A DNA stretch of 64,000 nucleotides from Gammaproteobacteria bacterium (GTDB taxonomy: Bacteria > Pseudomonadota > Gammaproteobacteria > Steroidobacterales > Foliamicaceae). Each line of letters opens with the position of its first letter. The stretch's first letter is position 1. Shown in pieces: positions 20,207-51,697 of the stretch. The notes beneath the pieces are model-generated. The model did not search any database and was not told where the DNA came from. It saw nothing but the letters and a program-made list of their open reading frames with translations. A program made the translations under genes and the position numbers. The DNA is taken from assembly GCA_963665145.1 (NCBI GenBank), contig OY762064.1, positions 1,588,239 through 1,652,238 on the forward strand, read 5' to 3'.

Positions 20207-20209
20207 CTC

Positions 20210-26513: not shown

Positions 26514-26531
26514 ACCGTCACACCCCACGCA
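26514..26531 (+). repeat. 18-bp exact direct repeat ACCGTCACACCCCACGCA (left copy)
   Basis: The identical 18-mer occurs at 51680-51697. The flanks diverge on both sides apart from a short CGGAG 4-5 nt upstream. Confidence 0.9.
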
Positions 26532-26721
26532 CCGATGGTGCAGTGAGCGAGACCCCACGGGCCTGCGCTCTTCGGAAGATTTCCGTTATATGTCAGCAGG
26601 ATAGACCGAGTTCGGCCTATCGCCGCGATCCGCCGCGCGGGGCGCGTTGCCTGTTCAAAGCCGCCGTTTTGTTCCCTTGAGACGAACGGCGCCCGAGGAA
26701 ACAGACAACGGAGACACGCTC

Positions 26722-27861
26722 ATGCACATTCAAGCCACTATCAACGAGCGGACGCTTCGCCGTACATTCCGGGAGAAAAAACCCGGACGGTACGGCCTGA
26801 TCGTCATCGACCGGGACCTGCCCGCCTTCGGTTTCACGGTCGCAAAGAACGGAACAAAGACCTTCTTCGTCCGAGCTCCACGCCCGGTCGGCGCACCGAA
26901 AACCATCCTCGGCACGGCCGACGACATAACCGCCGCCGAGGCCCGCGAGATGGCCGTCGCCACCATCGCGCCCGCCAAGGCCGAGCGCGAGACCGGCCCG
27001 CGGTTCGCCGACTTCGTCGACGAGTTCATGCGCCGCCAGGCGCGGCTCTGGAAGCCGTCCACCCGCCAGTGCAACCGCCACCTGCTCGACCGCTACCTCC
27101 TGCCGTTCTTCGGCGCGATGCCTGTCGCAAAGATCGGCCGCGCCGATGTGCGCCGCTGGTTCGATTCCCTGAGCGCCACGCCCGCCAGCGCCAACCGGGC
27201 CCTGCCGGTGCTGTCGGTGATGATGCGCCAGGCGGAACTGTGGGATTTCCGGCCCCAGGGCTCCAATCCCTGCCGCAACATGCACCGCTACAAGACCGCG
27301 CCGCGCGAGCGGTTCCTTTCGGTCGAGGAACTCAAGCGCCTCGGGTTCGTGCTCGACCATGCCGATGACAGTCAGGCAGCCGCCGCGATCCGGCTGCTGC
27401 TGTTCACCGGCGCGCGGTTGTCGGAAATCACGGCGCTGCGGTGGGACTGGATACGCGGCACTCGCGCGGTGCTCCCGGACTCCAAGACCGGGCCGAAAGC
27501 GATCCAGCTTCCGCCGCCCGCCAGGGCGGTGCTGAACGCTCTGCCGCGTGACAGTGAATATGTGTTCCCGAATCCGGCGGGCGACGCTCCCATGAAGAAC
27601 CTCGGGTACCGCTGGTTGAAGCTGCGCGATCTCACCGGACTGGACGATGTGCGCATCCACGACTGCCGGCATACGTTCGCCTCCCACGCCGTCATGAGCG
27701 GCCTCGACCTCTATACCGTCGGAAGGCTGCTGGGTCACGCCGACATCGCCTCGACCGAGCGTTACGCCCATCTGGCCGACGAGCACATCCGCGCCGCGGC
27801 GGGGCGCATCTCCGGCATCGTCCACGGGGCCATGACCGGCAGCGCCAAGGAGGGAAAATGA
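26722..27861 (+). CDS. tyrosine integrase 3
   Basis: ATG 26722 after AACGGAGA. Motifs: LFTGARLSE, HDCRHTFASH, LGHADIASTERYAHL. Confidence 0.9.
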   Translation: MHIQATINERTLRRTFREKKPGRYGLIVIDRDLPAFGFTVAKNGTKTFFVRAPRPVGAPKTILGTADDITAAEAREMAVATIAPAKAERETGPRFADFVDEFMRRQARLWKPSTRQCNRHLLDRYLLPFFGAMPVAKIGRADVRRWFDSLSATPASANRALPVLSVMMRQAELWDFRPQGSNPCRNMHRYKTAPRERFLSVEELKRLGFVLDHADDSQAAAAIRLLLFTGARLSEITALRWDWIRGTRAVLPDSKTGPKAIQLPPPARAVLNALPRDSEYVFPNPAGDAPMKNLGYRWLKLRDLTGLDDVRIHDCRHTFASHAVMSGLDLYTVGRLLGHADIASTERYAHLADEHIRAAAGRISGIVHGAMTGSAKEGK

Positions 27862-29297
27862 TGAGCGGCGGCAAGCACCGCTTCCGGTTGACCGTGAAGG
27901 CCATCGCTGCCGCGAAGCCGGGGGCGATGGAACGCACCCTGTGGGACACCCAGCTGGCGCACTTCGGGGTTCGGGTGCAACCCTCCGGGGTCAAGTCCTA
28001 CATCATCCAGACCCGCGTTAACGGGCGCATGCGCAAGATCACGCTCGGGCGGTTCCCTGAACTGTCGCTGGACGCGGCACGGCGCGAGGGCGCGGCCGTG
28101 CTCGCCCGCCTGTGGAGCGGCGAGGACGTGAAGCCGGCGCGGAAGAACAGGGCGCCGCTGTTCCGGGATTTCGCCAAGCGCTACCGTGAACGGCGGCGGC
28201 ACCGTTGGAAGCCGTCCTCGCTCGAAACCCACGACATCTACATGCGCAACCGGCTGATGCCGGCCTTTGGCCGGATGCGGCTCGACGCCATCGACCATGC
28301 GCGCGTTTCCGCCTGGTTCGATGCCGCCAGTGTGGACAAGCCCGGCGCGGCCAACCGCGCCTTCGAAATCCTGCGCGCGATGCTGAAGACGGCCCGCCAG
28401 TGGGGAGACATCGGAGAACACGTCCCCGACGCCTGCGCCAATATCGTCAAAAACCCGAGAAGGCACGTCGCGCGTTTTCTGAACCGCGGGGAACTCGAAC
28501 GGCTCGGTGCCGTCCTGGACGCGCACCAGGCCGAACAGCCGTGGCGGGTCGCCGCGGTCCGGCTGCTGACGCTCACCGGCGCGCGCCTGTCGGAGATCCT
28601 CAACCTCAAGTGGGAGGAGGTCGGCGAGTTGGATGCCGACGGCGCCAGCGCCCGTCTCGAAGACTCCAAGACCGGGCCGCGCACGGTCTGGCTCGGGCCG
28701 GAGGCGGCCAACGTGCTCGCCGCCCTGCCGCGGGCGGAAGAGGCCGCGCGGGTGTTCCCGGGAAATCTCACGCCGGGCCGGTTCTACAGGTTCTGGGTCG
28801 GCATCCGGGAGGAAGCCGGGCTGGCCGGGCTGCGGATCCACGACTGCCGCCACACCTGGGCCTCGCAGGGCGTCATGAACGGCGTCGGGCTGACCACCGT
28901 CGGGCGGCTGCTCGGACACCGCCAGCGCGAAACCACGGCAATCTATGCGCACCTCGACGATGCCGCGCTTTACGACGCCGCCGCGCAGGTCGCGAACGTC
29001 ATGGCCCGTGTAATGGATTTCAAGGAGACGGCACCTGAATTGCCTCACGATGAAGAACAAAACGGTGAGAAACGCGATCAATCACTCCTTTTGAATTCAC
29101 GGGAGAGGCCAGCCGATTCTCCGAATCTCTCTAAGACGAAGAGCGAACTCGGAACGTCCTGCAGGAAGGGCGAAGACATCACCGAAGAGCTTCTCCGACA
29201 ACGGAAGTTCGAGCAGTTGGTGCGACCAACCGGAGCCGAACCCCCTGCAACAGGCGCGCCCGGCAACCAACGTCCCGCGCCGCTCGATTGGCTGTGA
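27858..29297 (+). CDS. tyrosine integrase 4 (overlaps integrase 3 by 4 nt) with a roughly 90-aa low-complexity C-terminal extension
   Basis: 479 aa. Motifs: LWDTQLAHFGVRVQPSGVKSYIIQTR, LTGARLSE, HDCRHTWAS, LGHRQRETTAIYAHL. The tail after about residue 390 has no integrase similarity. Confidence 0.85.
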   Translation: MMSGGKHRFRLTVKAIAAAKPGAMERTLWDTQLAHFGVRVQPSGVKSYIIQTRVNGRMRKITLGRFPELSLDAARREGAAVLARLWSGEDVKPARKNRAPLFRDFAKRYRERRRHRWKPSSLETHDIYMRNRLMPAFGRMRLDAIDHARVSAWFDAASVDKPGAANRAFEILRAMLKTARQWGDIGEHVPDACANIVKNPRRHVARFLNRGELERLGAVLDAHQAEQPWRVAAVRLLTLTGARLSEILNLKWEEVGELDADGASARLEDSKTGPRTVWLGPEAANVLAALPRAEEAARVFPGNLTPGRFYRFWVGIREEAGLAGLRIHDCRHTWASQGVMNGVGLTTVGRLLGHRQRETTAIYAHLDDAALYDAAAQVANVMARVMDFKETAPELPHDEEQNGEKRDQSLLLNSRERPADSPNLSKTKSELGTSCRKGEDITEELLRQRKFEQLVRPTGAEPPATGAPGNQRPAPLDWL

Positions 29298-29420: not shown

Positions 29421-30608
29421 TCAGGTCGATCGCATCCGCTCGGCCCTCGACAGTTTCTGCAACACGCCTTTGATCCGACCCACCGCTTCATCGATGTCGT
29501 CATCGCTTGTGGCGAAGCCGAGACTAAAGCGGATGGAGGATTCAGCCTCGTCACAACTCAGGCCGATTGCTCTCAGGACATGCGAAGGTTCCGGTATGCC
29601 CGACGTGCAGGCCGAACCGGTCGAGGCTGCGACATGCGGCTGCAAAGCGACCAGTATGTCGTGGGCCGCGAATCCCACGAACCCGATATTCGCGTTGCCG
29701 GGATGTCGGGATTGCCCCTCCGGGCCATTCATAGTGATCGGCCAAGCAAGTCGCCTCAGACCGGTAACGAACCTGTCTCTCTTGCGGCGCAACTTCTTAC
29801 GCCGATTTTCGGCGGTCGCGTCCGTAAACATGTCTGCGGCTACGCCCATGCCAACGCAAAGCGGGATGGGCACCGTGCCCGAGCGCAAACCGTTCTGCTG
29901 GCCGCCGCCGTAGATCAGCGGTTCGATCCGGTCTTGAAGTTCCCGTGCAATATAAGCGGCTCCTATTCCCTTCGGCCCGTACATCTTGTGTGCTGAAATA
30001 CTGAGAATATCGACGTATTCGGCGAATGAACTCAGCTCAATTGCGACCGGTGCTTGTGCCGCGTCGCAGTGAAATGCGGCACCGTAGTTCCTTGCGACCT
30101 TTGATAGACGCTTGATATCCTCAATCGTTCCGATTTCGTTATTCACGGCCATGATCGATACAAGAAGAACATCGTCATCCAACGATTCTTCAAGCGTTGA
30201 CGCTTCGATAAAACCCTTCGAGTCAACTGGCAGGAGTTCGACTTTCAAGCCTAGCCGTTCTTCAATCGCGCGCCCCGCGGCCAGGACGCATTTATGCTCG
30301 GCGGCGCTGACCAGCACACGCCGGCGCATGCCGCCGCGCGCGCGGCGCGCGAGCCCCAGCAAGGCGAGGTTGTTCGCTTCGGTCGCCCCCGAAGTGAAGA
30401 TGATTTCATCGGCGTCCGCACCGATCAAGCGTGCGACTCGGGCGGCGGCCTCGTCCACGGCGCGCAATGTTTCCCATCCGAGGGCGTGATCGACGGAATG
30501 CGGATTGCCGAACGATTCAGTGAAATACGGCGTCATTTCGGCAAGAACACGCGAATCTAACGGCGTGGTCGCCTGATGGTCGAGATATATGGTGTCTCTA
30601 ATTCTCAT
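29421..30608 (-). CDS. sspA: cysteine desulfurase (IscS/NifS/DndA class), SspA-type
   Basis: 395 aa. The PLP-lysine region is LSISAHKMYGPKGIGA and the active-site Cys loop is GSACTSG. It is divergently placed next to sspB-like genes. Confidence 0.8.
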   Translation of the reverse strand: MRIRDTIYLDHQATTPLDSRVLAEMTPYFTESFGNPHSVDHALGWETLRAVDEAAARVARLIGADADEIIFTSGATEANNLALLGLARRARGGMRRRVLVSAAEHKCVLAAGRAIEERLGLKVELLPVDSKGFIEASTLEESLDDDVLLVSIMAVNNEIGTIEDIKRLSKVARNYGAAFHCDAAQAPVAIELSSFAEYVDILSISAHKMYGPKGIGAAYIARELQDRIEPLIYGGGQQNGLRSGTVPIPLCVGMGVAADMFTDATAENRRKKLRRKRDRFVTGLRRLAWPITMNGPEGQSRHPGNANIGFVGFAAHDILVALQPHVAASTGSACTSGIPEPSHVLRAIGLSCDEAESSIRFSLGFATSDDDIDEAVGRIKGVLQKLSRAERMRST

Positions 30609-30695
30609 TTAGCCTCAATAGCATAGACGCTGAAATCCCTGAGCTTACCCTCCTGCCGGCATCGGCGTGTTTCTGGGGCACGCCTCCAGGTCCAA

Positions 30696-30725
30696 TTGAC
30701 CATAGCACGCCATTCGGGCTACAGT
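30696..30725 (+). promoter_or_regulatory. possible sigma70-type promoter for sspBCD (TTGACC-18 nt-TACAGT)
   Basis: These hexamers were read directly in the 152-bp divergent sspA/sspB intergenic region. The spacer is one nt longer than optimal. Confidence 0.25.
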
Positions 30726-30760
30726 CGAGCTGGAGGCATCATCCAGTAGCCGAGGCACCA

Positions 30761-31723
30761 ATGGCGCGCGGACCACTTTTTCAAGACACCTACAGCCCGC
30801 AGTTTTCGGGCCATGAAACCTTCCCGCTTCGTTACGGGTGGCTGAAAAAGTCGTATGACCGTGTTGCAGAGACCGAACACGAAGAAGAGAACAGGACTCT
30901 GTGTTGGGATGATGACGCCATTGCGCGATTCGGCGTCGGCAAGAACATGGTCGCCTCAATGCGCCATTGGGCGAAGGCGGCGAGCATCATAGAAGAACCG
31001 GCGATCAATGCCGTCAGAACGACTGAACTCGGACGAAAGTTAGTGAGCAACAATGCCGGGTTCGATCCGTATATGGAGCATCCCGCGACCCTGTGGCTGA
31101 TACATTGGCAATTGGCAGCCTATCCCAAAAAGACGACATGGTTCTGGGCGTTCAGTCACTTCCCGGCAATTACGTTCGAGCGGGACCATTTCGTGAAAAA
31201 GCTCGACTGGCTTGCGAAAGATCGCAATTGGTCGCGGGTGGCGACCACGACCATTAGAAACGATGTTGCGTGCTTTATCCGCACCTATGTTGCGCGTGCA
31301 CCATCGGGGAGAACCGGCCATGATGATGCGCTAGAATCGCCCCTCACCGAGTTGGGCCTAATAAAGCCAGTCGGAAAGAAAGACATATTCCGCTTTGTGC
31401 GCGGCCCGAAATCCACCTTGGGCGACGGCGTGTTCGCCTACGCCCTGACCGATTTCTGGTCGCGGTATTCTCCTGATGCGGCGACGCTCGCTTTCGAGGC
31501 CATCGCGCATGCGCCTGGCGCGCCGGGTCGTGTGTTTTGCCTGGATGAAAACGATGTTGCTGACCGGCTCGCTGCTCTCGACGACGCGACGGGCGGCGCA
31601 CTGCAATGGTCCGAGACCGCGGGGTTGAAGCAGGTCGTCCGCAACGTCAAAATCGACGGCGACACCAGATTCAAATGGCTGCCTATGGATTACGGCAGCG
31701 CCGCCCAAAGGGAGGCTGCGTAA
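30761..31723 (+). CDS. sspB: DUF4007-family protein, SspB-type
   Basis: 320 aa. The N-terminal FSGHETFPLRYGWLKKSYD is the block I associate with DUF4007/SspB. Its stop overlaps the next ATG (TAATG). Confidence 0.75.
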   Translation: MARGPLFQDTYSPQFSGHETFPLRYGWLKKSYDRVAETEHEEENRTLCWDDDAIARFGVGKNMVASMRHWAKAASIIEEPAINAVRTTELGRKLVSNNAGFDPYMEHPATLWLIHWQLAAYPKKTTWFWAFSHFPAITFERDHFVKKLDWLAKDRNWSRVATTTIRNDVACFIRTYVARAPSGRTGHDDALESPLTELGLIKPVGKKDIFRFVRGPKSTLGDGVFAYALTDFWSRYSPDAATLAFEAIAHAPGAPGRVFCLDENDVADRLAALDDATGGALQWSETAGLKQVVRNVKIDGDTRFKWLPMDYGSAAQREAA

Positions 31724-34700
31724 TGCCATTGAACAAACATGTCCGCATAGCACGCCGCTTTTTGAGGTCGATCCGGATTGACACCGATCTTGGAGAGACC
31801 TCGGCTCTTGAAGGATTTATATGCCCGCAATCTTCAGCCGACGTACTCGCGACGATGGCGCGGCATGTAGCTGAGACCGGACAAGGCGCGTTCACATGGA
31901 CCGGCCCTTACGGCAGCGGCAAGTCGAGCCTTGTCGTCGCGCTCGCGGCATTGCTGAATGGGAATGCCGGATTGCAGGGGCAGGCGGGGAAGCTGTTCGG
32001 CCGCAAGCTGACTGGTGACATTCACAGGGCGATGCCGACCGGCAGGAAGGGATGGCGCGTCGTTCCCGTGGTCGGCCGCCGCGACAACCCCGTGGCGGTC
32101 ATCGGCGAGGCCGTGCATAAATCCGGGATCCTGTCGCGCCGGCCGCACGGCGGCTGGTCCGAGCAAGAACTGATCGACACGCTGGTCGATGCGGCGGCGG
32201 AAAAATCGAAGACGCATGGCGGGCTCGTACTGTTCATTGACGAAATGGGCAAGTTTCTGGAAGCCGCCGCGCAGGACGGCTCTGACATCTACGTTCTTCA
32301 ACAGCTCGCCGAAACGGCCTCGCGCAGCGGTGGGCGGTTGCTGATCGTCGGCATCCTGCACCAGGCATTCGAGGAATACGCCCATCGGCTCTCCCATGAG
32401 AAGCGCGACGAATGGGCGAAGATTCAGGGGCGGTTCATCGACCTGGTCGTCAACACCGCCGGTGAAGAACAGATTGAGTTGATCTCCCGCGCCATCGAGA
32501 GCGATCCCTGTCCACGGAAATTCCACCGGCTTGCCGCGACGGTCGCAAATTTCGCCCGGCGCGATCGCGTCGGCGACGCGCAACGGCTCGCGTCGATGCT
32601 TGAGGCTTGCTGGCCCTTGCATCCCGTCGTAGCCTGCCTTCTCGGGCCGATATCGAGACGGCGCTTCGGCCAGAACCAGCGCAGTATCTTCGGGTTTCTG
32701 AATTCGTCGGAGCCCCACGGGTTTCGAGACTTTCTGAACACTGCCGGTGACGATGCGCTCTACGGGCCGGATCGGCTCTGGGATTACCTGCGGGCGAATC
32801 TCGAACCTTCGATTCTCGCGTCGCCTGACGGGCACCGTTGGGCGCTGGCGGCCGAGCCGCTGGAGCGCTGTGAGGCCATCGGCGGCAACGAACTCCATAT
32901 CAGCCTGCTCAAGACCATCGCGGTCATCGACCTGTTCAAGGAGCGCTCCGGCCTCGTCGCGCGGTTCGACCTGCTGCGAAGCTGCTTTCCGAGAGAGACT
33001 GTCACGACGCTGGAAAATACTCTTTCCGACCTCGACACTTGGTCGTTCACGACGTTCAAGAAGTTCCTCGACGCGCATGCCATCTTCGCCGGAAGCGATT
33101 TCGATATCGACCGGGCCGTGCGTGGCGCGCTCGACGACATTGACGAGATCGATTTTGCGGAGCTGAAACACCTGGCGGGGTTGCAGCCGATTCTCGCTAA
33201 GCGCCACTACCATAACACCGGCGCTTTGCGTTGGTTCGATGTCAACATCGTGCCTGTCAGCGAGCTGGAGCGCGTCGCGGCCGGATTCGCGTCTGAGAAC
33301 GGCGCAATCGGTCAGTTTCTTCTCGCAATCCCGACGGATGGGGAGAGCCAGCAGCTTGCGGAAAAGCTGTGCCGCAAGGCAGCACGGCACAGCGACGCGT
33401 GGGATATCGTTGTCGGCATCTCCAAACGGTCGTGGGCCATCGTGCCGCTGGCGCGTGAACTTTTTGCCCTCGACAGCGTCGGCAACGACCACCCCGAACT
33501 GGCCGGGGACAGTGTCGCGCGACGCGAAGTGTCCGCCCGGCTGGCGACGCTGCAAGCTTTGCTTGAATCCGAGTTTCACAAGGCCTTCGACAACGCCCTG
33601 TGGTTCCGCAAGAATCACCAGCCCAAACACCTGCGGCAAGCGGACCTGAACAGCGTTGCGTCCGAACTTGCAGACAAGCGCTACGATGCGTGCCCGCGCC
33701 TGCACAACGAACTTCTTAACCGGCACAAGCCGTCCAGCAACGCCATTGCCGCGCAGAACACCCTGCTGCGGAACATGGTGCTGAACGAAGGGACGGACCG
33801 GCTCGGCATCAAGCGGTTCCCGGCGGAAGGCGGGCTGTTCGCGTCGATACTTGAAAAGACAGGCCTTTATGCGAATCCCGGTAACGGGTGGCGTTTCGTC
33901 TCTCCCACCGAGGACGACGACGATCCGTGCCGTCTCGCCCCTGTGTGGCAAAAGGCGCTCGACCTTTTGAAACGGAATGCAGACCGCACCGTCGCAGTCT
34001 CGGAAATCTTCGATGAGTGGCGCAAACCACCCTATGGCGTCAAAGACGGGTTGATGCCGATTCTCGCCGTCGCGTTCATTTTGTCGCAACGCGACAAACT
34101 CGCCGTCTATCGCGAGGGAATATTCCAGGCGCGGTTCGACGATGTTGATGTCGATTATCTTGCGAAGGATGCTGGCGCGATCCAGTTGCGCTGGATGAAC
34201 CTGACCGATGTTTCTCGCCGCCTGTTGTCCGATATGGCGAAAGTCGTGCGCGCGCTCGACAGCGAAAACAAACTCGTGCACTTGGAGCCGCTTGATGTCG
34301 CGCGCGGCCTTGTCGCAATTTTCGACCGACTGCCGCAATGGACCCGGCGGACGATGCGCTTGTCCGCCAATGCGGTTCATGTCCGCGATATCTTCAATCG
34401 AGCGAATGATCCGAACAAGTTCCTATTCGACGATATTCCGGCGACGCTCGGCGAAGACCTTTCATCCGCTAAGGGCGAGGACCTTGGCCACGTGGTCGCG
34501 AGCGTTCGCGGCGGGCTTGAGGAGCTGGTGCATGCCTATCCGGAGATGCTGAACCGTTTGCGCGACATCATGCTCGCGGAATTGCAGGTTCCGAACGCTT
34601 CGCCGGAATCGCTCGCGGAGTTGCGCGACCGGGCCGAAAACATAAGGCAACTTGCCGGAGATTTTCGGCTGGATGCGTTTATCGTCCGGCTGTCCGCCTT

Positions 34701-35115
34701 CGACGGGACCGACGAGAGCTTCGAGGGGATTGCCAGTCTCGCCACCAACAAACCGCCGCGCGACTGGGTCGATCCCGACCTTGACCGCGCCGCGATCGAG
34801 CTTGCCGACCTGGCGCAGAAGTTCACACGTGCCGAGACCTATGCGCGCGTCAAGGGGCGTCCGGAGAAGCGGCAGGCAATGGCCGTGGTGATCGGCATGG
34901 ACGGCCGACCCGCGCCGCTCCTGGAGGAATTCGACATAGCCGACTCGGACCGCGCCGCCGTGAACGAGTTGATCGAACGCGTCGCCTCAGCCCTCAACGA
35001 ATCCGACACGACTCGCCGCAGCATCATCCTCGCCGCGCTGGCGGAACTCAGCACGCGATACATGCATGCGCCGGAACGGACCAAAAAGAACCGGGAAGAA
35101 AGAGCCGCATCTTGA
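31723..35115 (+). CDS. sspC: large P-loop ATPase, SspC-type
   Basis: ATG at 31723 (MPLNKHVRIARRF..), about 1130 aa. Walker A is TGPYGSGKSS and Walker B is LVLFIDEMGKF. The position between the DUF4007 and PAPS-reductase genes matches ssp clusters. Confidence 0.7.
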   Translation: MPLNKHVRIARRFLRSIRIDTDLGETSALEGFICPQSSADVLATMARHVAETGQGAFTWTGPYGSGKSSLVVALAALLNGNAGLQGQAGKLFGRKLTGDIHRAMPTGRKGWRVVPVVGRRDNPVAVIGEAVHKSGILSRRPHGGWSEQELIDTLVDAAAEKSKTHGGLVLFIDEMGKFLEAAAQDGSDIYVLQQLAETASRSGGRLLIVGILHQAFEEYAHRLSHEKRDEWAKIQGRFIDLVVNTAGEEQIELISRAIESDPCPRKFHRLAATVANFARRDRVGDAQRLASMLEACWPLHPVVACLLGPISRRRFGQNQRSIFGFLNSSEPHGFRDFLNTAGDDALYGPDRLWDYLRANLEPSILASPDGHRWALAAEPLERCEAIGGNELHISLLKTIAVIDLFKERSGLVARFDLLRSCFPRETVTTLENTLSDLDTWSFTTFKKFLDAHAIFAGSDFDIDRAVRGALDDIDEIDFAELKHLAGLQPILAKRHYHNTGALRWFDVNIVPVSELERVAAGFASENGAIGQFLLAIPTDGESQQLAEKLCRKAARHSDAWDIVVGISKRSWAIVPLARELFALDSVGNDHPELAGDSVARREVSARLATLQALLESEFHKAFDNALWFRKNHQPKHLRQADLNSVASELADKRYDACPRLHNELLNRHKPSSNAIAAQNTLLRNMVLNEGTDRLGIKRFPAEGGLFASILEKTGLYANPGNGWRFVSPTEDDDDPCRLAPVWQKALDLLKRNADRTVAVSEIFDEWRKPPYGVKDGLMPILAVAFILSQRDKLAVYREGIFQARFDDVDVDYLAKDAGAIQLRWMNLTDVSRRLLSDMAKVVRALDSENKLVHLEPLDVARGLVAIFDRLPQWTRRTMRLSANAVHVRDIFNRANDPNKFLFDDIPATLGEDLSSAKGEDLGHVVASVRGGLEELVHAYPEMLNRLRDIMLAELQVPNASPESLAELRDRAENIRQLAGDFRLDAFIVRLSAFDGTDESFEGIASLATNKPPRDWVDPDLDRAAIELADLAQKFTRAETYARVKGRPEKRQAMAVVIGMDGRPAPLLEEFDIADSDRAAVNELIERVASALNESDTTRRSIILAALAELSTRYMHAPERTKKNREERAAS

Positions 35116-35951
35116 AAGCCGAAAACGTGAAACATGTTCTGGGGCTCTCTGGCGGCCGCGACAGCGCGGCTCTTGCCGTCTATATGCGGCAACATCACCC
35201 AGAGATGGAGATAGAGTATTTCTTTACGGACACCGGCAAGGAACTGCCTGAGGTCTATGAATTCCTCGGGCGTCTTGAAGGATTTCTCGGGCAGGAAATC
35301 CGCAAACTGAATCCCGACCGCGACTTCGACTTCTGGCTCAAGCAGTACAATAATTTCCTACCCTCGCCCCAAGCGCGCTGGTGCACACGGCAGCTCAAGC
35401 TCCGCCCGTTCGAACTCTGGCTGCGTCCGATGCTCGAAGACGGCATAACTGTCTACAGCTATGTCGCGATCCGCAGCGATGAGGCATACAGGGCGGGCTA
35501 TGCCTCGAAACACGACAACCTAGTCATCAAGCTGCCATTCAAGGATACGGGCATAGACAAGCCCGGTGTTCTCGAAATTCTCGACGGCGCGGGCCTTGGC
35601 CTGCCCAAATACTACGAATGGCGCACGCGTAGCGGTTGCACGTTCTGTTTTTTCCAGCAGAAGATCGAATGGGTGCGGCTCAGAGAGCGGCACCCAGAAG
35701 CGTTCGAGGAAGCCAAGGCGTACGAGAAGGATGCCGTGGAACATGGTTCGCCGTTCACTTGGAGCCAGGGAGAATCGCTGGAAGAGTTGGAGCAGTCCGA
35801 GCGGATCGCGCAGATTAGGGCCGATCACGCGGACCGTCTAGCGCGCATGCGCGCAAAGGTTCAGTCGAATCCCCTGAGACCGGACAGCGAGCCTCTGGAT
35901 ATTGATGATCTTTACGGTCAGGCGAAGAGTTGCCTGGCATGTCACAAATGA
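35112..35951 (+). CDS. sspD: PAPS-reductase/ATP-pyrophosphatase family protein, SspD-type (DndC-like)
   Basis: 279 aa with the PP-loop LGLSGGRDSAA and the Cys clusters CTFCFF and CLACHK. The TTG start overlaps the sspC stop by 4 nt; an alternative GTG lies a few codons downstream. Confidence 0.8.
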   Translation: MKAENVKHVLGLSGGRDSAALAVYMRQHHPEMEIEYFFTDTGKELPEVYEFLGRLEGFLGQEIRKLNPDRDFDFWLKQYNNFLPSPQARWCTRQLKLRPFELWLRPMLEDGITVYSYVAIRSDEAYRAGYASKHDNLVIKLPFKDTGIDKPGVLEILDGAGLGLPKYYEWRTRSGCTFCFFQQKIEWVRLRERHPEAFEEAKAYEKDAVEHGSPFTWSQGESLEELEQSERIAQIRADHADRLARMRAKVQSNPLRPDSEPLDIDDLYGQAKSCLACHK

Positions 35952-41353: not shown

Positions 41354-41354
41354 T

Positions 41355-44030: not shown

Positions 44031-45623
44031 CTACGGTGCAACCTTCTCGAAGAGATTCGCCTGTTCCTCATCGCGCGGCAAATCCACCTCGGGCATCAGC
44101 TTCGCGACCGCTTCGGCCGGTACATTCCCGAGCTCCTTCGGCTCCAGCTTGTGTAATCCACCGCCGTAAACACGTCCCTCCCCAAGCATCGCCTTAGGAC
44201 AAATCTGATTCAGAATCTTCCACATTTGCCGTCTCAGTTCCGGCCGAGCTACCAGAGCCTGATGTAGCGGCCTCGATGGGTATAGCATCAAGTACACGTT
44301 CGCCGCTGTTGCCCGTGAATTATTCAATATGAAGCGGAAAGATCGCCCATTCTTCTTGTCGCTTCGGCCGAGATAGGTGCAGACGAAAGGTGCCGGGGGC
44401 CGGTTTTCCTGCATGTACCAGCGCTTTCGATGGCGACAGATGTAGCGATCTGCAATTCCCTCTTGCTTACCCTCCTCTAAATACGCCCACAAATTCGGAA
44501 AGCGATTCTTGATTTCCTCTTCGGCCCACGGTGGATCTAGCAGAAACAATCGGCGCTCCAGCACCGGATTACCGCTCCGATCACCCTTGACTTCATCCTC
44601 TGTCAAATAGCGTGGACTCGGCAGGATCGGTTTGAAGGCTTCCATCGGAAGTCCGCGGCGAGCAATCTCCTGCGACGACAGGATGAAGTAACGGTTATTG
44701 CCAGTAGCCAAACCCCGCTTGATCTTGAAGAAGTCGCCGAGTACTGGCCCATTGTTTTTCTCGTGCCTTTCCTTCGCCGGATAGCGTGTCCATTTTGGAT
44801 CGTGGCGCAATGTCTGCGCTGGTATTAGCCGCTCCAGCTTCGGTCGTTCCAACGTGCCACCATAGCTGAATCGCACTTGGTGATCTTCTTTCGGAGCCTG
44901 GTTGCGGAACCAGACTACTGCGGACGACACAAGTGCGTCACCGAACTGCACATCGTTGGGGTCGAAGCGATGAATGTGGAGAAGCGTCACCCTGTTCAGC
45001 AGGTAGTGCTTCACGGCGACACCGTAATTCACGTCCATGAACTCGCTCGGGATCAACCACCCCGCCAATCCGCCTTCCGCCATCCACGGGTGGCTCAAAC
45101 CCAAAAAATAGCAGTAGAGCCCTGCAAGCCCGTTGATCTCCACGCCGCAGGAATTCAGCGTCTCTTGCCTCAACCGTTTCTTCTCGACATTGACAATATG
45201 GTGATGCCGAACATAGGGCGGATTACAGATGACAAGGTTGAACCTGTCCCCAGCCTTCGGCACCTCAGACCGGGTAAAGTCCATTAGGCGGAGATCAAGC
45301 CCGGTGTTCCCCCATAGTCTTGCCGCTGGCCGACCGTAATGCGGGTCGATTTCGTAGCCCACGGCAGAGCGAATACAAGTCTGTGGAAACACGCTCAGCA
45401 ATGCGGAATAGAACGAGCCCGTTCCAAAGGCCGGGTCCATAAACCTTATGTCCTCGTTCGCTCCGAGTTGCCTCTGCGCATATCGCTGTATATCCGCAGC
45501 CAGCCCGGACGGTGTCGCAAATTGACCCATACGGTTGCGCATCTGTACGTCTCGACCTGTGTCCAGATCACGTTGCAATGCGATCCGCCGAGCTTCCAAG
45601 TCTGTAACTGTTGCCCTATTCAC
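44031..45623 (-). CDS. N6-adenine DNA methyltransferase (gamma class, Eco57I/TaqI-like catalytic domain + target-recognition domain)
   Basis: 530 aa. Motif I is FMDPAFGTGSF and motif IV is VICNPPYVRHH. Confidence 0.85.
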   Translation of the reverse strand: MNRATVTDLEARRIALQRDLDTGRDVQMRNRMGQFATPSGLAADIQRYAQRQLGANEDIRFMDPAFGTGSFYSALLSVFPQTCIRSAVGYEIDPHYGRPAARLWGNTGLDLRLMDFTRSEVPKAGDRFNLVICNPPYVRHHHIVNVEKKRLRQETLNSCGVEINGLAGLYCYFLGLSHPWMAEGGLAGWLIPSEFMDVNYGVAVKHYLLNRVTLLHIHRFDPNDVQFGDALVSSAVVWFRNQAPKEDHQVRFSYGGTLERPKLERLIPAQTLRHDPKWTRYPAKERHEKNNGPVLGDFFKIKRGLATGNNRYFILSSQEIARRGLPMEAFKPILPSPRYLTEDEVKGDRSGNPVLERRLFLLDPPWAEEEIKNRFPNLWAYLEEGKQEGIADRYICRHRKRWYMQENRPPAPFVCTYLGRSDKKNGRSFRFILNNSRATAANVYLMLYPSRPLHQALVARPELRRQMWKILNQICPKAMLGEGRVYGGGLHKLEPKELGNVPAEAVAKLMPEVDLPRDEEQANLFEKVAP

Positions 45624-46586
45624 CTACAATCCAAACTCCGCGAAATCGTGGATGCGGTGCTCCCAAACCCAGTCGATACCTTCCGCCGCCTCGTAACCGA
45701 GATAGCCGCTGTCGAAATACCCGCACAGGAATAATACGAAGCGCACATTGTTACCGTAGGTTCGGCGCAACTGGCTCATTTTCGCCGCTTCTTCCTTGCG
45801 TCTCTTGTTGACGTTTGTGAAGTCTCCTGCCGATTTTGCCTCGATAAGCAACGGCAGCTCACCAACCTTGGCGGTCTTGGCCATAACGACCGCGTCCACA
45901 GGGATATTGATGTTCTTGTCCGTTCCTTCCTGGGCGACGGGTACGTTGAGACGAAACGAGTATGTCCCAGGCTTCATCTCATCAAACTTCGTGCCTTCGC
46001 CGGAAGGAAGGTTCGTATACCCCAATGTCGCCAGCCATTCGCCAATGGCTTCGAGCTGACGCTTCTCCTGAGCATTGCGGATGATGGGATTCGCAACGGC
46101 TCCGCACAAACGATCAGCCACGATCGTCGCAGCTCTATACAGCTCCTTTTCGGACGGTTCGTTGCGGCGCTCCAACCACACGAAGACATCGGGATCGGCC
46201 ATCGTCTCGATTATCTTCCCCATCTTTTCTAAGTCTATGTCCAGTTTGTTCCTCGGCATCCGTGGCGGCATCCTGTCGTACTTCTCCATCGACTTGACCA
46301 AGTTCCCCGAGACCCCGGCAAGACCAATCAGCCGGTCTACGGCCAACGGCGGACAAGTGGACATCCGCAAGGTAGGCAACACCGAGGGTTTCGTCTTTAG
46401 CAGTTCTGGCCCTACGTTGGTCAGGTTCTTGGTCGCCTTCAGCGTCGCCTCGACATCCTCTGTGGTCTTTACTCGCGTCGCCCGGTATGCCTCCGGTGCA
46501 AATCGCATGAACCAGTCGTTGTACATATCCACCGACAGCGCAATGTCTTCCTTCCACCGATCCGGTTTATCCCTGTTGGCAGCCAT
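45624..46586 (-). CDS. type II restriction endonuclease, XamI-like
   Basis: About 320 aa, abutting the methyltransferase gene with no gap. The N-terminal block KPDRWKEDIALSVDMYNDWFMRFAPEAY resembles what I recall of the XamI (RE_XamI) family; this assignment is from memory only. Start is ATG 46586 or GTG 46589. Confidence 0.6.
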   Translation of the reverse strand: MAANRDKPDRWKEDIALSVDMYNDWFMRFAPEAYRATRVKTTEDVEATLKATKNLTNVGPELLKTKPSVLPTLRMSTCPPLAVDRLIGLAGVSGNLVKSMEKYDRMPPRMPRNKLDIDLEKMGKIIETMADPDVFVWLERRNEPSEKELYRAATIVADRLCGAVANPIIRNAQEKRQLEAIGEWLATLGYTNLPSGEGTKFDEMKPGTYSFRLNVPVAQEGTDKNINIPVDAVVMAKTAKVGELPLLIEAKSAGDFTNVNKRRKEEAAKMSQLRRTYGNNVRFVLFLCGYFDSGYLGYEAAEGIDWVWEHRIHDFAEFGL

Positions 46587-46774
46587 CACTTGCGCTTCTT
46601 TGTCTGCACGTCCCGACTAGCCTGCCGGCAAAGATCCCAAACTTCCACGAATAGGCCGTTCAGCCGCACGTTCCGCATTGCTGCTTCTTTATTGAAATCA
46701 ACGGCCGTCTGCCTAGTTAGCCGGATTCCAATTACCTGTGTCGATTGGCCCTTTTTCCATCCGACTGCTCACTA
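46586..46774 (-). CDS. possible small ribbon-helix-helix controller-like ORF upstream of the restriction gene; no canonical start for the full domain
   Basis: The minus-frame translation ..QVIGIRLTRQTAVDFNKEAAMRNVRLNGLFVEVWDLCRQ.. has an RHH beta-strand and helix pattern, and its stop overlaps the REase ATG by 1 nt. The only ATG (46678) would give 30 aa. Confidence 0.25.
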
Positions 46775-47061
46775 TCGTTCTTGGTGTAGGCATTGTTTGT
46801 CGACAAGTCGAAAGATGTCAAGCGTTTTCGGTGGACTCGTTCGAACACATTGCCAATCCACACAACCTACTGCCACCGGTGATTATTTTCTTACGCTAAT
46901 CCGATCATCCGCAAGGCCGTCACGTCCCCTGCCGTAAATGCCGCCTTTTCGTCCCCTGCACAGCCCGAAGAGAGCGAGTCCGGCCGGTAGCGGGGCGGCG
47001 GGCGGCGCTCCGGGGGGCGCTGCCGCCGTTCCCTTTCCCCTGACACAAGGAGCACGGCACG

Positions 47062-47388
47062 ATGCAGGCGACACTCGCACCGCGCGGCGACGCGCGCACT
47101 TTTCTCACCCATTTCGTCGGCAGCGGTCTTGTTGACGACCGCTATGTCATCCAGCGGTACCGGTCCCAGGCGGACGGCGACATTGTTCCTGTCGACGCCA
47201 ATGGCGCCAGACCGAAGGGCCGGCACCGACCCCGCCCAACCATCGCCTCGCTGAAGGCGGTCGAAAAGCTGCGCCCGGCCCGCGACGAGATCATCATCGC
47301 GACGGGGATCAAGCTGCGCAATTGTGGAGTACAGATCTGGGGCTGGAGAAGTCTGGGTCTTTTCGTCGAGCGCCGCCAGAAGGGCTGA
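47062..47388 (+). CDS. conserved hypothetical protein (108 aa), module gene 1 copy 2
   Basis: Paralogue of 21686..22012 with the same length. Confidence 0.55.
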   Translation: MQATLAPRGDARTFLTHFVGSGLVDDRYVIQRYRSQADGDIVPVDANGARPKGRHRPRPTIASLKAVEKLRPARDEIIIATGIKLRNCGVQIWGWRSLGLFVERRQKG

Positions 47389-47473
47389 CCGGCACGCACC
47401 TGGGACGTGCCGCCGGCCCGCTGCCGGGGGGGCGTCCTGCCGTCCCGACTTCCACAGCTTCCGGAGACGCCAT

Positions 47474-48490
47474 ATGCCCTACAAGGATCCTGAGCGCCGG
47501 GCGCGCGACCGCGAGCGGATCGCACAGCGCACTGCCGAGCGTCTCGCCGCCGGCCTTTGTCCCAAGTGTGGTCAACGCCCACCCCAACCCGGGCGGCGTA
47601 ACTGCGCGCCCTGTGCCGAGAGGGCCCGTGCCGCCGGCCGTGCACGGGATGCACGATTGCGCGCCGCCGGCCAACCGCGGCGGAACAGGGAGCGGGCTCG
47701 CGCGTACGAGCGGGGGCGGGTCCGCCGGCAGGCCGCCGACCGTATCGCCCGGGGCGTCTGCACCAAGTGCGGGACAGAGCGTGCCGAGTCCGGCCTCCGC
47801 CTTTGCGCGCCCTGTGCTGAGAAACGCCGCGCATGGGACCGGGCCCGATACCGGGCGGGCAAAGCCGCCGGCGCGCTTTATGGCGGAGCCAATGTCGATG
47901 CAAAGCGCCGCATCGCCCGCATCGCCAGCGCGAAACGCCGCAACGCGCGCGTCGAAGCCGGCCTGTGCCGACGCTGCGGCCGCCAGCCTCCCGTCGAAGG
48001 CGGCGCCACCTGCGCGCCGTGCCGGGAGACCCGGCAGGCGGCGGAGCGCGCACTGTACGCATCCCGGAAGGCCGCCGGCCTTTGCACCCGCTGCGGGGGA
48101 CCGACAACCGACAGCGTTCCCCAGTGCGCGCCCTGCATCGTGCTCGAAGCCGAGCGCCGCCGGCCCGAGCACAAGAACGCCCGGAGCCGGCAACGGTACT
48201 GGGAACGGAGGGCGGCCAGCCGCTGCACGGACTGCAATGCGCCGAGCTTTGGAGCCTCGCGATGCCCCACGTGCGCCGAACGCTCGTACGAGCGCTCCGA
48301 CTTCTTCCGCGGCATCCCCGTGTGGGATCCCAGTTATACGGTGATCGAACTTGCCACGGGGGAGACTCACGGCCCGTTCGATTCCGAAGCCGAAGCCGTC
48401 GCCGAGCTGGCCTTCGCCGGCCTTTCGTTCGACGAGGTCGAGATCGTCAACGACGCGCCGGTCACGGCGCGGCTGACCGGCTGGGCCTGA
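47474..48490 (+). CDS. five-fold tandem zinc-ribbon repeat protein, copy 2
   Basis: ATG 47474 (MPYKDPERRARDRERIAQR..). The five CxxC..CxxC units are CPKCG/CAPC, CTKCG/CAPC, CRRCG/CAPC, CTRCG/CAPC and CTDCN/CPTC. Confidence 0.6.
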   Translation: MPYKDPERRARDRERIAQRTAERLAAGLCPKCGQRPPQPGRRNCAPCAERARAAGRARDARLRAAGQPRRNRERARAYERGRVRRQAADRIARGVCTKCGTERAESGLRLCAPCAEKRRAWDRARYRAGKAAGALYGGANVDAKRRIARIASAKRRNARVEAGLCRRCGRQPPVEGGATCAPCRETRQAAERALYASRKAAGLCTRCGGPTTDSVPQCAPCIVLEAERRRPEHKNARSRQRYWERRAASRCTDCNAPSFGASRCPTCAERSYERSDFFRGIPVWDPSYTVIELATGETHGPFDSEAEAVAELAFAGLSFDEVEIVNDAPVTARLTGWA

Positions 48491-48536
48491 GCGGTCCTCA
48501 TTCGTCGGGCGGGGGGTCCTGAGTTCGAGGATAGCG

Positions 48537-48575
48537 CGTGCCGGGCGAACGCCCGGGAGAGGAGAGGGAGAAGGG
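48537..48575 (+). promoter_or_regulatory. conserved leader element B (hairpin + polypurine tract)
   Basis: Near-identical to 23641-23679. It ends 37 nt before ATG 48613. Confidence 0.35.
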
Positions 48576-48612
48576 CTCCCCGTCCCGGGCGGACCCACGA
48601 AGGAGGTATCCC

Positions 48613-48789
48613 ATGTTCACACCCGACACCGACTACGACCCCATCCCCGCAGCCACCGGCCAATTGCTGAACGACCTCGGCATTGACGTAAACGCCGTGC
48701 GAGAGACTCTCGCCGACGACCGGGCCCGGCGCTGTCCCGAACACGAGGTCCGGGAAATCGAGAGTTGGAGGGAAGCAAGAGAAGGATGA
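48613..48789 (+). CDS. conserved small protein (58 aa), copy 2
   Basis: GAAGGAGG lies before the ATG. Paralogue of 23719..23895. Confidence 0.5.
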   Translation: MFTPDTDYDPIPAATGQLLNDLGIDVNAVRETLADDRARRCPEHEVREIESWREAREG

Positions 48790-48870
48790 GCGGACGAGGG
48801 TCCGGAGAGAGACTCCGGTTCCCGGCCGTTCGCCCACCCATCGTCATTACGTAGCAGAAGGAGAATCAAC

Positions 48871-49329
48871 ATGAGTTTTGGATTGAATCGCGCGGAAGTC
48901 ATCGGCCGCCTTGGCGCTGACGTCACGGTCAACCACCTGGTATCGGGGGGCCGTGTGGCCAACCTCAGCATCGCCACCGACGAGTCGTACATCGACAAAG
49001 GCGGCGAGCGCGTCGACAAGACCGAGTGGCACCGCATCGTTACCTTCCAGCCCGGGCTGGTGGACATGCTGGTCAAGAACGCGAGGAAGGGCCGGCTAGT
49101 CTACGTCGCGGGCAAGCTGCAGACGCGGCGCTGGCGCAAGGACGGCGAGGACGCCGACCGATTCTCGACCGAGATCCTCCTGGCGCCCGGTTCGCGGGTC
49201 CAGTTCCTGGACCGACCGAACGGCAATAGTGCGGCGACCGAAGCCGGCGAGCCGGCCAACGGTTCCGCCATGCCGGCGGACGCCACGGCGCAGGCGGACG
49301 GCAGGCAGGGCGATCAGATCCCCTTCTGA
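48871..49329 (+). CDS. ssb: single-stranded DNA-binding protein, copy 2
   Basis: 152 aa. The OB-fold region is nearly identical by eye to copy 1, and the C-terminal tip is ..GDQIPF. Confidence 0.85.
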   Translation: MSFGLNRAEVIGRLGADVTVNHLVSGGRVANLSIATDESYIDKGGERVDKTEWHRIVTFQPGLVDMLVKNARKGRLVYVAGKLQTRRWRKDGEDADRFSTEILLAPGSRVQFLDRPNGNSAATEAGEPANGSAMPADATAQADGRQGDQIPF

Positions 49330-49352
49330 TCTCGCTTCCGCTTACGCCCGAA

Positions 49353-49385
49353 GGGGGCCGGTGCTTCGTCGCCGGTCCCCTTTTT
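49353..49385 (+). terminator. Rho-independent terminator after ssb copy 2
   Basis: GGGGGCCGGTG-cttcgt-CGCCGGTCCCC is an 11-bp stem with two G-U pairs, followed by TTTTT. Confidence 0.7.
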
Positions 49386-49464
49386 CATGCAGGCGGCTTC
49401 GAGCCCGCACCGCACCGTTCGGGATTCGCAACCGTCTATGCGGGGGAGGAGGAGAGTAGCTCGG

Positions 49465-49495
49465 CCACGGCGAACCGCGCGGAGAGGAGAGGGAG
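49465..49495 (+). promoter_or_regulatory. conserved leader element C (partial hairpin + AGAGGAGAGGGAG)
   Basis: A third copy of the polypurine leader. It ends 37 nt before ATG 49533. Confidence 0.3.
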
Positions 49496-49532
49496 TACCG
49501 CCGCGCCCGCATCGGACCACCGGGAGAAACCC

Positions 49533-49760
49533 ATGAGCGACGTCACCTTCAAGCGGGCCGGCCCGCACGAATCCCGCATCTACACAGACGGCGACTGCAT
49601 CGGCGACATCTATCGCATGGACGACATCCTCCGCCCGGGTGTGCATGTCTACGTCATTCACTTGTTCGAGGACTGGCGGGGACCGAAGCGCGTCCACGAC
49701 CGGCGGCGCATCCGCGAGGTGGCCCAGCACCTGCTCGATACGCACCCGTTCTACGGGTAA
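49533..49760 (+). CDS. small hypothetical protein (75 aa) present only in module copy 2
   Basis: It is preceded by the same leader element as the 58-aa genes. No family was recognised. Confidence 0.4.
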   Translation: MSDVTFKRAGPHESRIYTDGDCIGDIYRMDDILRPGVHVYVIHLFEDWRGPKRVHDRRRIREVAQHLLDTHPFYG

Positions 49761-50048
49761 CCGGAGTGGAATAAAGCGTTGCGTTCCAGATCGGCAGCGC
49801 CAGCCTGCTGCGCACTGGGTTTGCGGGAAGAGAACGGGGTCGTGAAACCAAAAAGCTCCTCCCGACATAGGCCCATTGTCACACACGTGCTCACTGCGCC
49901 AACCCCTTCGGGGTCCTCCACTGTGTTCCGGCCGCTTCGCGGTGACTCCGCTGCGCGCGCGTGAGACAACAAACCTATGTCGGGAAACGCTCTTCCGGCA
50001 ATGCGGGCCATCGGGCCCAACTCTCAACTTCGTTAAGGAGACACTCTA

Positions 50049-50966
50049 ATGTTCAATTACGACACCCATCAAGCCATCTCCCCCACCGCCGTCATCTGCG
50101 AGAACGCCGCGCTCTACGGCGCAAAGCCCGAACGAGGCGAGCACGACCCCAGGGCCATCTGGGACCGCGACGGCGCCATAGACGCTGCGACGCAGGCGTT
50201 CGCGATCCTGGCCGAGGGCATCGCCCCCGACGGGGTGCAGCTGGCCGACGAACGAGAGAGCCTGCTCTGGGGCATCGTCAACGCCTTCGACGCCCAGGTG
50301 AGAAGGCTCGACCGCAGCGTCGATAAGCTCATCCCCCAACTGCGCGACCTCGAACGCGCCCAGGACGGCACCGAGATCAACGCCCGAGAGTTGGAACTGC
50401 GCACCGAGCGCGCGCAACACCTCGGGGACCGGCGCGACGCCTTCGAGGCAATGCGCGACGCGCTGGCCGAGCAGTACCGCGACAACACGGGCAGCACCTG
50501 GCGCCCGCGGCGCGGCAGCCACGTCAGCCACACCGGCAAGCTGACCTCCGCGGCGATCGACGCCCGCGACTTCCGCCGCGCGAAGAAGGACCGCGAGATG
50601 AACGCGCACCTGCCCGACGGCACGCTGGTCGCCATCACCGGCGGCAAGACCGTCACGGACTGCGACGCCGTCAACCGCAGCCTCGACCGCGTCCGCGCCA
50701 AGTACCGTGACATGGTGCTGGTGCACGGCGGCGGACCCGGCGTGGAGAAGATCGCCGCGCAGTGGGCCGAACGCAACGAAGTGCACCAGGTCGTGTGCAA
50801 GCCGGACTGGAACCGTCACGGACGGGCCGCACCGTTCCGCCGCAACGACGAGCTGCTCAATCTCCTGCCCAAGGGCGTCATCGCCTTCCCCGGCTCAGGC
50901 ATCACCGACAACCTCATCGACAAGGCCACCTCACTCGGCATCCCCGTCCAGAAGATCGCGGCGTAG
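50049..50966 (+). CDS. N-terminal helical domain + DUF2493 (SLOG-like) fusion, copy 2
   Basis: 305 aa. Paralogue of 24792..25718 with a near-identical C-terminal domain. Confidence 0.7.
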   Translation: MFNYDTHQAISPTAVICENAALYGAKPERGEHDPRAIWDRDGAIDAATQAFAILAEGIAPDGVQLADERESLLWGIVNAFDAQVRRLDRSVDKLIPQLRDLERAQDGTEINARELELRTERAQHLGDRRDAFEAMRDALAEQYRDNTGSTWRPRRGSHVSHTGKLTSAAIDARDFRRAKKDREMNAHLPDGTLVAITGGKTVTDCDAVNRSLDRVRAKYRDMVLVHGGGPGVEKIAAQWAERNEVHQVVCKPDWNRHGRAAPFRRNDELLNLLPKGVIAFPGSGITDNLIDKATSLGIPVQKIAA

Positions 50967-51679
50967 TCCGCGACCCGCCAACGGGCCGCGCCGACCCGCT
51001 TGGCGCGGCCCGTTCCTCGATCCCGTCACAATCCAGCAGGGCGGCGCCACGCCTCACGGGTCCATGCACTTCGCACATCACCTGTGACGGCTTCGCCGTT
51101 CACCTCCATCCGCAGTGCCATCCGCACTGGTGCCGCAAATGGTGTCGATCGTCCCGCGGACGCTGCCGCCGCCGCGTCCGCCCGTGGGCTTCGCACGACG
51201 GCCGGCACCTCCGTCGGCATTGCCTACTTCGGCCCGTGCAACCGCAATCGCGTCCTCGCGGCTGACGCCGCGGTAACGTGTGTGTCATAGACCTCTGCGC
51301 GTGCGGTAACAGGTGAACGCCGATATCTTCCCCAGCAACACCACCGCTGTCCACGTTCCCTGCTGCGCTGAGGGAACATGTGCAACGCGTCCACTGGGTG
51401 TGCGGAACATGTGAGACGAATCTTCTGCGCTGAGGGAACAATCCGGGTCCGCGCCCGCAACCGGTGCGCCCTGTGTGATGCACAGCACCGCGCCCTTCCG
51501 TTGCGCGCCCCGTTCTGTTACCTTGGCCCGCGAACGGCAACGCGGAACGTGCTCGATGATCGCGGTCCGGTCGTCTCGCTCAATCGCCGCGGCGGCTCCA
51601 AATCCTTGATTTGCCGGCGTTTCAGGCGGTGGTGGTGTGCAGGGCTCCTTTGCCCAATTTCGACTCCATTCGGAGTTTT

Positions 51680-51697
51680 ACCGTCACACCCCACGCA
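51680..51697 (+). repeat. 18-bp exact direct repeat ACCGTCACACCCCACGCA (right copy)
   Basis: Identical to 26514-26531. Confidence 0.9.

Follow-up and report, generated by a model that had tools for sequence, protein, structure and literature searches.

Two copies of an 18-bp direct repeat probably bound a 25.2-kb two-integrase element inserted at the end of an SSB/DUF2493 module

The window, a 64,000-nt stretch of contig OY762064.1 from a Gammaproteobacteria bacterium, contains the 18-mer ACCGTCACACCCCACGCA in two exact plus-strand copies, at 26514–26531 and 51680–51697. The DNA that the two copies delimit (26518–51697) is probably a 25.2-kb site-specific integrative element, a reading to which we assign a probability of about 0.8. 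The element is arranged in the order core, 190-bp arm, IntA, IntB, SspABCD with a restriction partner, XamI restriction-modification pair, module 2, 0.66-kb arm and core. Comparison with related loci indicates that both 18-mer copies are, in all likelihood, site-specific recombination junctions, as the earlier note on this DNA proposed when it described them as candidate attL and attR sites. The same comparison identifies both copies as sequence of the element family rather than a duplicated naive chromosomal target.

The geometry of the repeat given in the earlier note was reproduced. The window contains exactly two exact copies; 190 bp separate the end of the left one from the IntA (integrase 3) start at 26722, and the right one lies 713 bp after the stop codon of the last module gene (DUF2493, at 50966) and ∼90 bp ahead of the first palindrome of an array. 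The gene map likewise places the second integrase pair, the defense cargo and module 2 between the copies. No further copy, including one to the left of integrase 1, is found with three or fewer mismatches on either strand of the whole window, where shuffled sequences are expected to give 0.03. One claim did not hold, namely that the repeat is independent of the module that is duplicated in the window. The 18-mer pair is collinear with the module duplication (offset of 25,166, versus 25,249 at the last module match), and pairwise alignment of the two module-to-18-mer stretches (0.7–0.8 kb each) yields only short collinear islands of identity. Judged from these alignments, the 18-mer is the conserved end block of an otherwise diverged arm that trails each module.

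The exact 18-mer alone is suggestive, not decisive. Exact direct repeats of at least 18 nt form 21 pairs in the window, 18 of which fall within the duplicated ∼4-kb module (∼21.6–25.8 kb versus 47.0–51.0 kb). The other three are a match between the int3 and int4 paralogues, the 26514/51680 pair and an unexplained pair, 7950/27340. Because other exact pairs of this length exist, the 18-mer proves nothing by itself. The 7950/27340 pair consists of the exact 18-mer CTCGGGTTCGTGCTCGAC at 7950–7967 in the dctM gene and 27340–27357 in intA and is probably a product of chance.

The conserved site consists of a 14-nt core, TCACACCCCACGCA, and a less strictly conserved 10-nt segment to its right, yCnnnGrTGC (positions +1 to +10). 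Among 29 unique family junctions, 11 of the 14 core positions are invariant, and conservation reaches background ∼10 nt to the right. The first 4 nt of the 18-mer belong to the arm, not the core. In ∼30 related loci (numbered with the prefix L), the core is always located 0.6–1.4 kb downstream of an SSB/DUF2493 (YAcAr) module. Three arm types terminate in the 18-mer, arm A (ending in CGGAGTTTT, right copy), arm B (ending in GGCGGAGCCGGATC, left copy) and a third type. In the loci retrieved via homologues of the integrases, the arms are different and agree solely in their final 14 nt. Arm A contains a 16-nt direct repeat, CTGCGCTGAGGGAACA, at 51363–51378 and 51425–51440, and two similar copies are found in the arm of L059; these repeats are candidate arm-type integrase binding sites. 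The element-side arm P′ is kept in L024, L050, L051 and L053, all of which, like the window, place the IntA start 204 nt from the start of the core. Beyond the right copy, the next 10 bases, GTTCCTCTGC, retain no more than the TGC of yCnnnGrTGC, as in L018.

A scan of 596 Gb of genomes for the 18-mer returned 23 single matches, with ∼17 estimated by chance, and metagenomes returned 25 more. The same arm stands on the left in at least 8 of the 23 genome matches and ∼17 of the 25 metagenome matches, and the right sides differ. Wherever an arm-bearing locus extends far enough leftward, the same SSB/DUF2493 module is present. The right sides form three classes. In the first (window left copy, L024, L050–L057 and L063–L065), the core is followed by a conserved 190-nt arm and IntA-IntB, always with 204 nt from core start to IntA start. 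In the second (window right copy, L018, L010, L029/39, L030/37/47, L025/27/28, L026/48, L033 and L060), it is followed by a gene for a ribbon–helix–helix (RHH)-like protein, with palindromes at fixed distances. The third class comprises other DNA, such as the chromosomal aldo/keto reductase gene of L059, whose ATG lies 22 nt past the core. The plasmid collection gave a match to the DUF2493 gene only and to neither arm nor core. The single viral-contig match to the 18-mer was rejected as chance; its flanks are the same as those of the Cupriavidus locus L007.

Homology between relatives starts or stops at the core at both ends of the element. On the integrase side, one IntB protein (P0044) is encoded in six places (L053–L058) spread over five contigs from a single sample. 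These copies are 100% identical from TCTCACACC rightward, that identity starting inside the core and extending over at least 12.7 kb, across IntA, IntB and a methylase/HATPase/Mrr-helicase cargo as far as the inside of the next module. On the left the flanks are unrelated: a RadC/SSB/toprim/DUF2493 block, an orf108-type module, or cargo that closes with a HigBA pair. At core position 8, L055 has a C and the other five copies an A; the variant goes with the left flank, and the crossover therefore lies to the right of that base. In a three-copy relative (P0053, L063–L065), 100% identity begins at most 6 nt before the core, and the arms differ by scattered substitutions. Around the left 18-mer, L051 and the window share 91.6% identity from 26493 rightward, and leftward L051 has a different module (with toprim) and arm. 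At the right copy, L029, L039 and L044 are 89–91% identical over up to 4.2 kb that end exactly at 51697, beyond which they have the RHH flank of a different allele; the loci with this allele type (L030, L037 and L047) are ∼71% identical to the RHH region of the window. Homology to the window likewise stops exactly at 51697 in L006, L012, L002 and L023, and L061 combines the arm of L059 with a different flank. Each of the four half-sites, three of them arms (A, B and the Int-type) and one the RHH flank, is thus joined to varied partners, always at the core. The attL/attR reading is supported because both copies sit where homology between relatives starts or stops.

An unoccupied analogue of the site is present in L060, in which a module of the module-1 type, arm B and a core variant, TCACACCGGACGCA, are followed by the RHH gene without interruption. 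The L060 RHH gene is 76% identical to window positions 52064–52317, and L010 is a more distant similar example. The uninterrupted arrangement of module 1, site and RHH gene that the earlier note suggested searching for in relatives therefore exists by analogy, in a different genome and not in the same species. Insertion of the element between module 1 and the RHH ("MobC") gene, one of two models offered in that note, is favored, with L060 lacking the interruption.

The extent of the moving unit was delimited by the same comparisons. A unit of module, arm, core, IntA-IntB and cargo was proposed since a DUF2493 gene precedes IntA in every locus, and it was ruled out because each 100%-identical block opens at the core and extends across the cargo and into the module downstream. 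This downstream module ends in an arm and a core, after which unrelated DNA follows (L059 and L061). The unit is therefore core-IntA-IntB-cargo-module-arm-core, in agreement with the earlier note. An arm is always found on the left, which means that insertion takes place where a resident module ends. Comparison with related loci indicates that the element has been inserted at the core ending module 1, parting module 1 from the RHH gene that normally comes next. Since the far end of the element supplies a module, arm and core of its own, each insertion restores the docking site, which explains the tandem stacks of units in other genomes. Head-to-tail units are observed in the window (module 1, arm and core, then a full unit) and in L055 and L056, where a unit stands behind the cargo or module of another, and L060 and L051 form a further stack on one contig. 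IntA and IntB may act as a hetero-complex in which each protein binds one half-site, the left (TCACACC...) being unlike the right (...GrTGC), and IntB, which has an Arm-DNA-bind_3 domain, may also bind arm repeats such as CTGCGCTGAGGGAACA.

Several points weigh against the integrative-element reading. The case is built on comparison across loci, and the empty site is known only from other genomes. The relatives are for the most part metagenome contigs, in which sequences may have been misjoined at repeats during assembly. The arrangement in L024 and L050, which have the left junction of the window, could be explained by descent rather than repeated insertion. In Int-type junctions the left side is always already an arm, and insertion into a naive chromosome is seen only from the right (L059). 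Moreover, no excisionase was recognized in the element, and the reduced right half-site of the right copy may impair excision. The element may still be able to excise; given the degenerate right half-site and the lack of a recognized excisionase, it could also be locked in place.

As an alternative, the 18-mer could be a functional site downstream of the module, such as an oriT nick site or an operator, that was duplicated with the module, with the breakpoints made by relaxase-mediated or homologous recombination. The collinearity of the repeat with the duplicated module, the fixed spacing of the RHH flank from the core and the resemblance of the module to conjugative-plasmid gene sets (DUF2493 by toprim, strawberry-notch) agree with such a site. 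A TraI-type helicase gene also lies behind the RHH homologue, but only in L028, and no relaxase was found in the window or in most relatives. This explanation is unlikely, as the 204-nt distance of IntA/IntB from the core does not vary across more than 10 loci, the 100%-identical stretches have the core as their left limit and take in the integrases, and homologous recombination would not yield base-precise boundaries across differing arms.

In the second model of the earlier note, two units (Int1-Int2-module 1 and Int3-Int4-cargo-module 2) accreted in tandem at one att site, which requires a degenerate third core to the left of integrase 1. Tandem stacks are common in the family (L055 and L056), in the window a module comes directly after Int1-Int2, and L076 and L077 have a RadC-type module start at this position. 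The candidate for the third core is CCCAACGCACGGTGTTGCC..TCGAGCG, a weak core look-alike at 18022–18055 after the peptidase stop codon, which was rejected because it does not exceed background in a window-wide scan. Furthermore, modules without an integrase on the left abut chromosomal genes in L050, L054 and L057, and relatives of Int1/2 are bounded by the vapC 5′ end or tRNA-Phe, not by the core. Since the boundaries of these relatives lie elsewhere, the missing third core poses no problem for insertion of a single element between module 1 and the RHH gene, and tandem accretion at one att site is improbable. Finally, a chance repeat in GC-rich DNA, which the second unexplained 18-mer (7950/27340) and the closeness of the 23 genome matches to the chance estimate might suggest, is refuted by the left arms shared at matches in other loci, which place those matches in the same element family, and by the 0.03 copies expected from shuffles, and is hardly credible.

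Table 1. Features of the window referred to in the text
Feature	Position	Strand	Description
Chromosomal genes	1–18019		UvrD, TrkAH, TRAP transporter, MacB/HlyD, M20 peptidase
VapBC	18090–18796	−	Toxin-antitoxin pair
Integrase pair 1 with upstream region	18762–21415	+	Int1 19034–20206, Int2 20210–21415; separate P4-type pair (Pfam)
Module 1	from 21490	+	orf108 21686–22012, zinc-ribbon ORF 22097–23107, SSB, DUF2493/YAcAr 24687–25718 (Pfam)
Arm B	∼25771–26513	+	Follows module 1; 82.6% identity to L060 up to 26541
Left core	26518–26531	+	Putative attL-type junction of the resident module-1 arm with the inserted element
Element-side arm P′	26532–26721	+	190 bp, core to IntA; starts with half-conserved CCGATGGTGC
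IntA (integrase 3)	26722–27861	+	379-aa tyrosine recombinase; Pfam Phage_integrase PF00589, 4.8e-18; weak arm-binding domain
IntB (integrase 4)	27858–29297	+	479-aa tyrosine recombinase; Arm-DNA-bind_3 domain (Pfam)
SspA, SspB, SspC, SspD	29421–35951	− (SspA)	DNA phosphorothioation genes (Pfam, PADLOC)
DndB-like protein, SF2 helicase, HATPase_c_3 protein, PLD-like nuclease	36521–42302	+	Pfam
Type II restriction-modification pair	44031–46589	−	Eco57I-type methylase (Pfam Eco57I, 2.9e-11) and XamI endonuclease (Pfam RE_XamI, 2.5e-120)
Module 2	46964–51020	+	orf108 47062–47388, zinc-ribbon ORF, SSB 48871–49329, DUF2493/YAcAr 50049–50966 (Pfam)
Arm A	51021–51679	+	0.66 kb; kept in L002, L006, L012, L018, L022, L023, L029, L039, L044
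Right core	51684–51697	+	Putative attR-type junction of the element's module-2 arm with the RHH flank
Palindromes GTATGC-N5-GCATAC	51789–51805, 51845–51863, 51889–51905		Within the RHH-type flank (51698–52390)
Small RHH-like ("MobC-like") gene	52003–52390	+	Homologues behind the core in more than 12 loci

The catalytic domains of IntA and IntB are both complete by Pfam, and the two genes overlap by 4 nt (ATGA). The IntA start was set by alignment with L050 and L024; in more than 10 loci the predicted orthologue measures 380 aa. Homologues of IntB number more than 1300 at E < 1e-30, and its gene stands directly behind the IntA gene in all loci fetched. Among the cargo genes, the Ssp proteins are matched by PADLOC with E-values of 1e-128 (SspA), 2e-108 (SspB), 0 (SspC) and 5e-136 (SspD). 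The four genes that follow give weaker PADLOC matches to DndB, PbeA, MzaB and DrmC and are probably the restriction partner of Ssp. Module 2 is 77–89% identical to module 1 at the nucleotide level, and its left boundary is common to L018, L022, L023 and L050. Module 1 is 84.6% identical to L060 over 4.5 kb; together with arm B (21490–26513; 90% identity to L050) it is best understood from these comparisons as the resident docking platform. No tRNA or Rfam family was found anywhere in the window, and hence none at the core site.

Integrase pair 1 is distinct from the element. Int1 and Int2 are ∼36–39% identical to IntA and IntB. In the relatives L066–L075, which represent one species sampled many times, the pair forms the right-hand end of variable islands and abuts a tRNA-Phe gene (∼12400–12480 in L066). 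L076 and L077 are 94% identical to Int1 and have the pair followed by a RadC gene, a RadC-type module start. Identity between these two loci starts within the first codons of two different vapC genes (∼9746–9766), which corresponds to window position 18762. The pair-1 unit begins within the first ∼10 codons of a vapC (PIN) gene in the window (18762–18796) and in two other contexts, and the shared breakpoint suggests a second element type that targets the vapC 5′ end and rebuilds its start.

In the RHH flank, the palindromes lie +106, +162 and +206 from the core, distances that are kept in L018, L030 and L010, and they are likely operators of the RHH-like protein. The designation "MobC-like" in the earlier note is not sustained. 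The product of the 52003–52390 gene matches no Pfam family at E-values up to 1, including any MobC or RHH family model, and the window has no relaxase gene. To the right of this gene lies decayed island material that contains assorted genes and insertion sequence (IS) elements. Positions 52907–54098 hold an IS5-family element whose inverted repeats are 27 nt long, a second related transposase gene is found at the window end (63520–64000), and IS110 and IS256 fragments are present at 56.5–58.7 kb. In L006, only 2.2 kb separates two arm-core copies (cores at 2902 and 5118 when the 18-mer is read on the plus strand), and a homologue of the res-type helicase of the window (61699–63381, minus strand) adjoins this double core. 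Given this arrangement, the DNA rightward of the RHH gene may belong to the cargo of another unit whose end lies past the window.

The element combines features of several known systems. As in integrative elements generally, a tyrosine recombinase gene lies by one end, a direct core is present at both ends, and homology breaks and an unoccupied analogue are found. P4-type genomic islands and integrative and mobilizable elements share with it an arm-binding integrase by one end, a short identical core at both ends, repeated arm motifs and accessory (defense) cargo. Unlike P4-type islands, the element has two overlapping integrase genes instead of one, and its target is the end of an SSB/DUF2493 module of the same family, which it regenerates, rather than a tRNA gene. 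Related units stand head to tail with att sites between them in the window, L055, L056 and L006. In this they are similar to tandem accretion and cis-mobilizable elements of the ICESt1/ICESt3 family, where site-specific recombination at the att site of a resident element gives head-to-tail stacks of related elements, and remnants without an integrase retain their att sites (Pavlovic et al. 2004). By comparison, the present units belong to other taxa, use other recombinases and contain no conjugation genes that were seen. Stacking appears to be the rule here, because each unit adds a new docking site 0.6–1.4 kb past its DUF2493 gene.

Two tyrosine recombinases in one mobile unit are also found in the Tn554 and Tn6283 (SE) types. 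In Tn554 both are required; the Tn554 family has TnpA, TnpB and a third gene, tnpC, and inserts without terminal repeats; the likeness drawn here is confined to the paired recombinases. Tn6283 is described as having an arm-binding domain in IntA, a 731-aa IntB and terminal C/C′ motifs with a variable spacer and as circularizing from one specific strand (PMC5991714). With a fixed direct-repeat core, a 379-aa IntA, a 479-aa IntB and overlapping genes, the present element is not of this type as described. It resembles integrons in having a fixed site near recombinase genes where gene-carrying units (mostly defense) array, but the units are 10–25 kb with their own integrases and promoters, lack attC-type hairpins and encode P4-like integrases instead of IntI. 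GInt and RIT elements, which need three consecutive tyrosine recombinases, were rejected since the window and all fetched loci have two per unit. BIM elements, reported in their paper to have a single recombinase and an unrelated protein, are not equivalent.

Members of the family occur in Alpha- and Gammaproteobacteria and Binatia. As a tentative proposal with slightly less than an even chance of being correct, they may form a large cross-phylum family of two-integrase stacking islands that dock at a ∼24-bp site ending an SSB/DUF2493 block, each adding a fresh block and site and so building expandable defense arrays, with the integrases dividing work between the half-sites. No description of two-integrase elements targeting a DUF2493 module end was found in the literature, the coverage of which was incomplete, and this is weak evidence of novelty. 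Taken singly, the finding is of an ordinary kind; the family that it reveals appears not to have been described before and is of moderate interest. If the proposal is true, the docking site would be a self-propagating landing pad, integron-like but for whole islands of 10–25 kb. The integrative-element reading, if correct, would explain the build-up of restriction, Ssp, CRISPR-Cas and toxin-antitoxin arrays by SSB/DUF2493 modules in uncultured bacteria. A widespread, apparently undescribed defense-island family would gain base-precise ends, a 14+10-nt site and two candidate recombinases, that is, a testable two-recombinase system with asymmetric half-sites. For annotation, the 45-kb "island" would split into a resident platform, a discrete 25.2-kb element and older material rightward.

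The contig that contains both L060 and L051 illustrates the cargo of such arrays. The two loci are ∼10.5 kb apart. A type I-C CRISPR-Cas system lies in an RHH-led segment that is bounded by two core sites, and this segment is followed by an IntA-IntB unit with SspBCD; arrays therefore collect several kinds of defense system. Genes similar to the DUF2493 gene of the module occur on conjugative alphaproteobacterial plasmids, adjoining toprim and strawberry-notch genes, and on this basis the SSB/DUF2493 module may derive from transfer-associated gene sets. A GC-rich stem-loop (GAGTCTGGCCGG...) stands at the sharp left edge of each module, ahead of the motif GCCGCCGTT(CC or TTTGTTC)CCTT. This motif is found at 21650, 26660 and 47022, 40–60 nt before the first gene of both modules and IntA, and may be a shared promoter or operator; a related sequence, CGTTCTGTTACCTTG, is present in arm A (51511).

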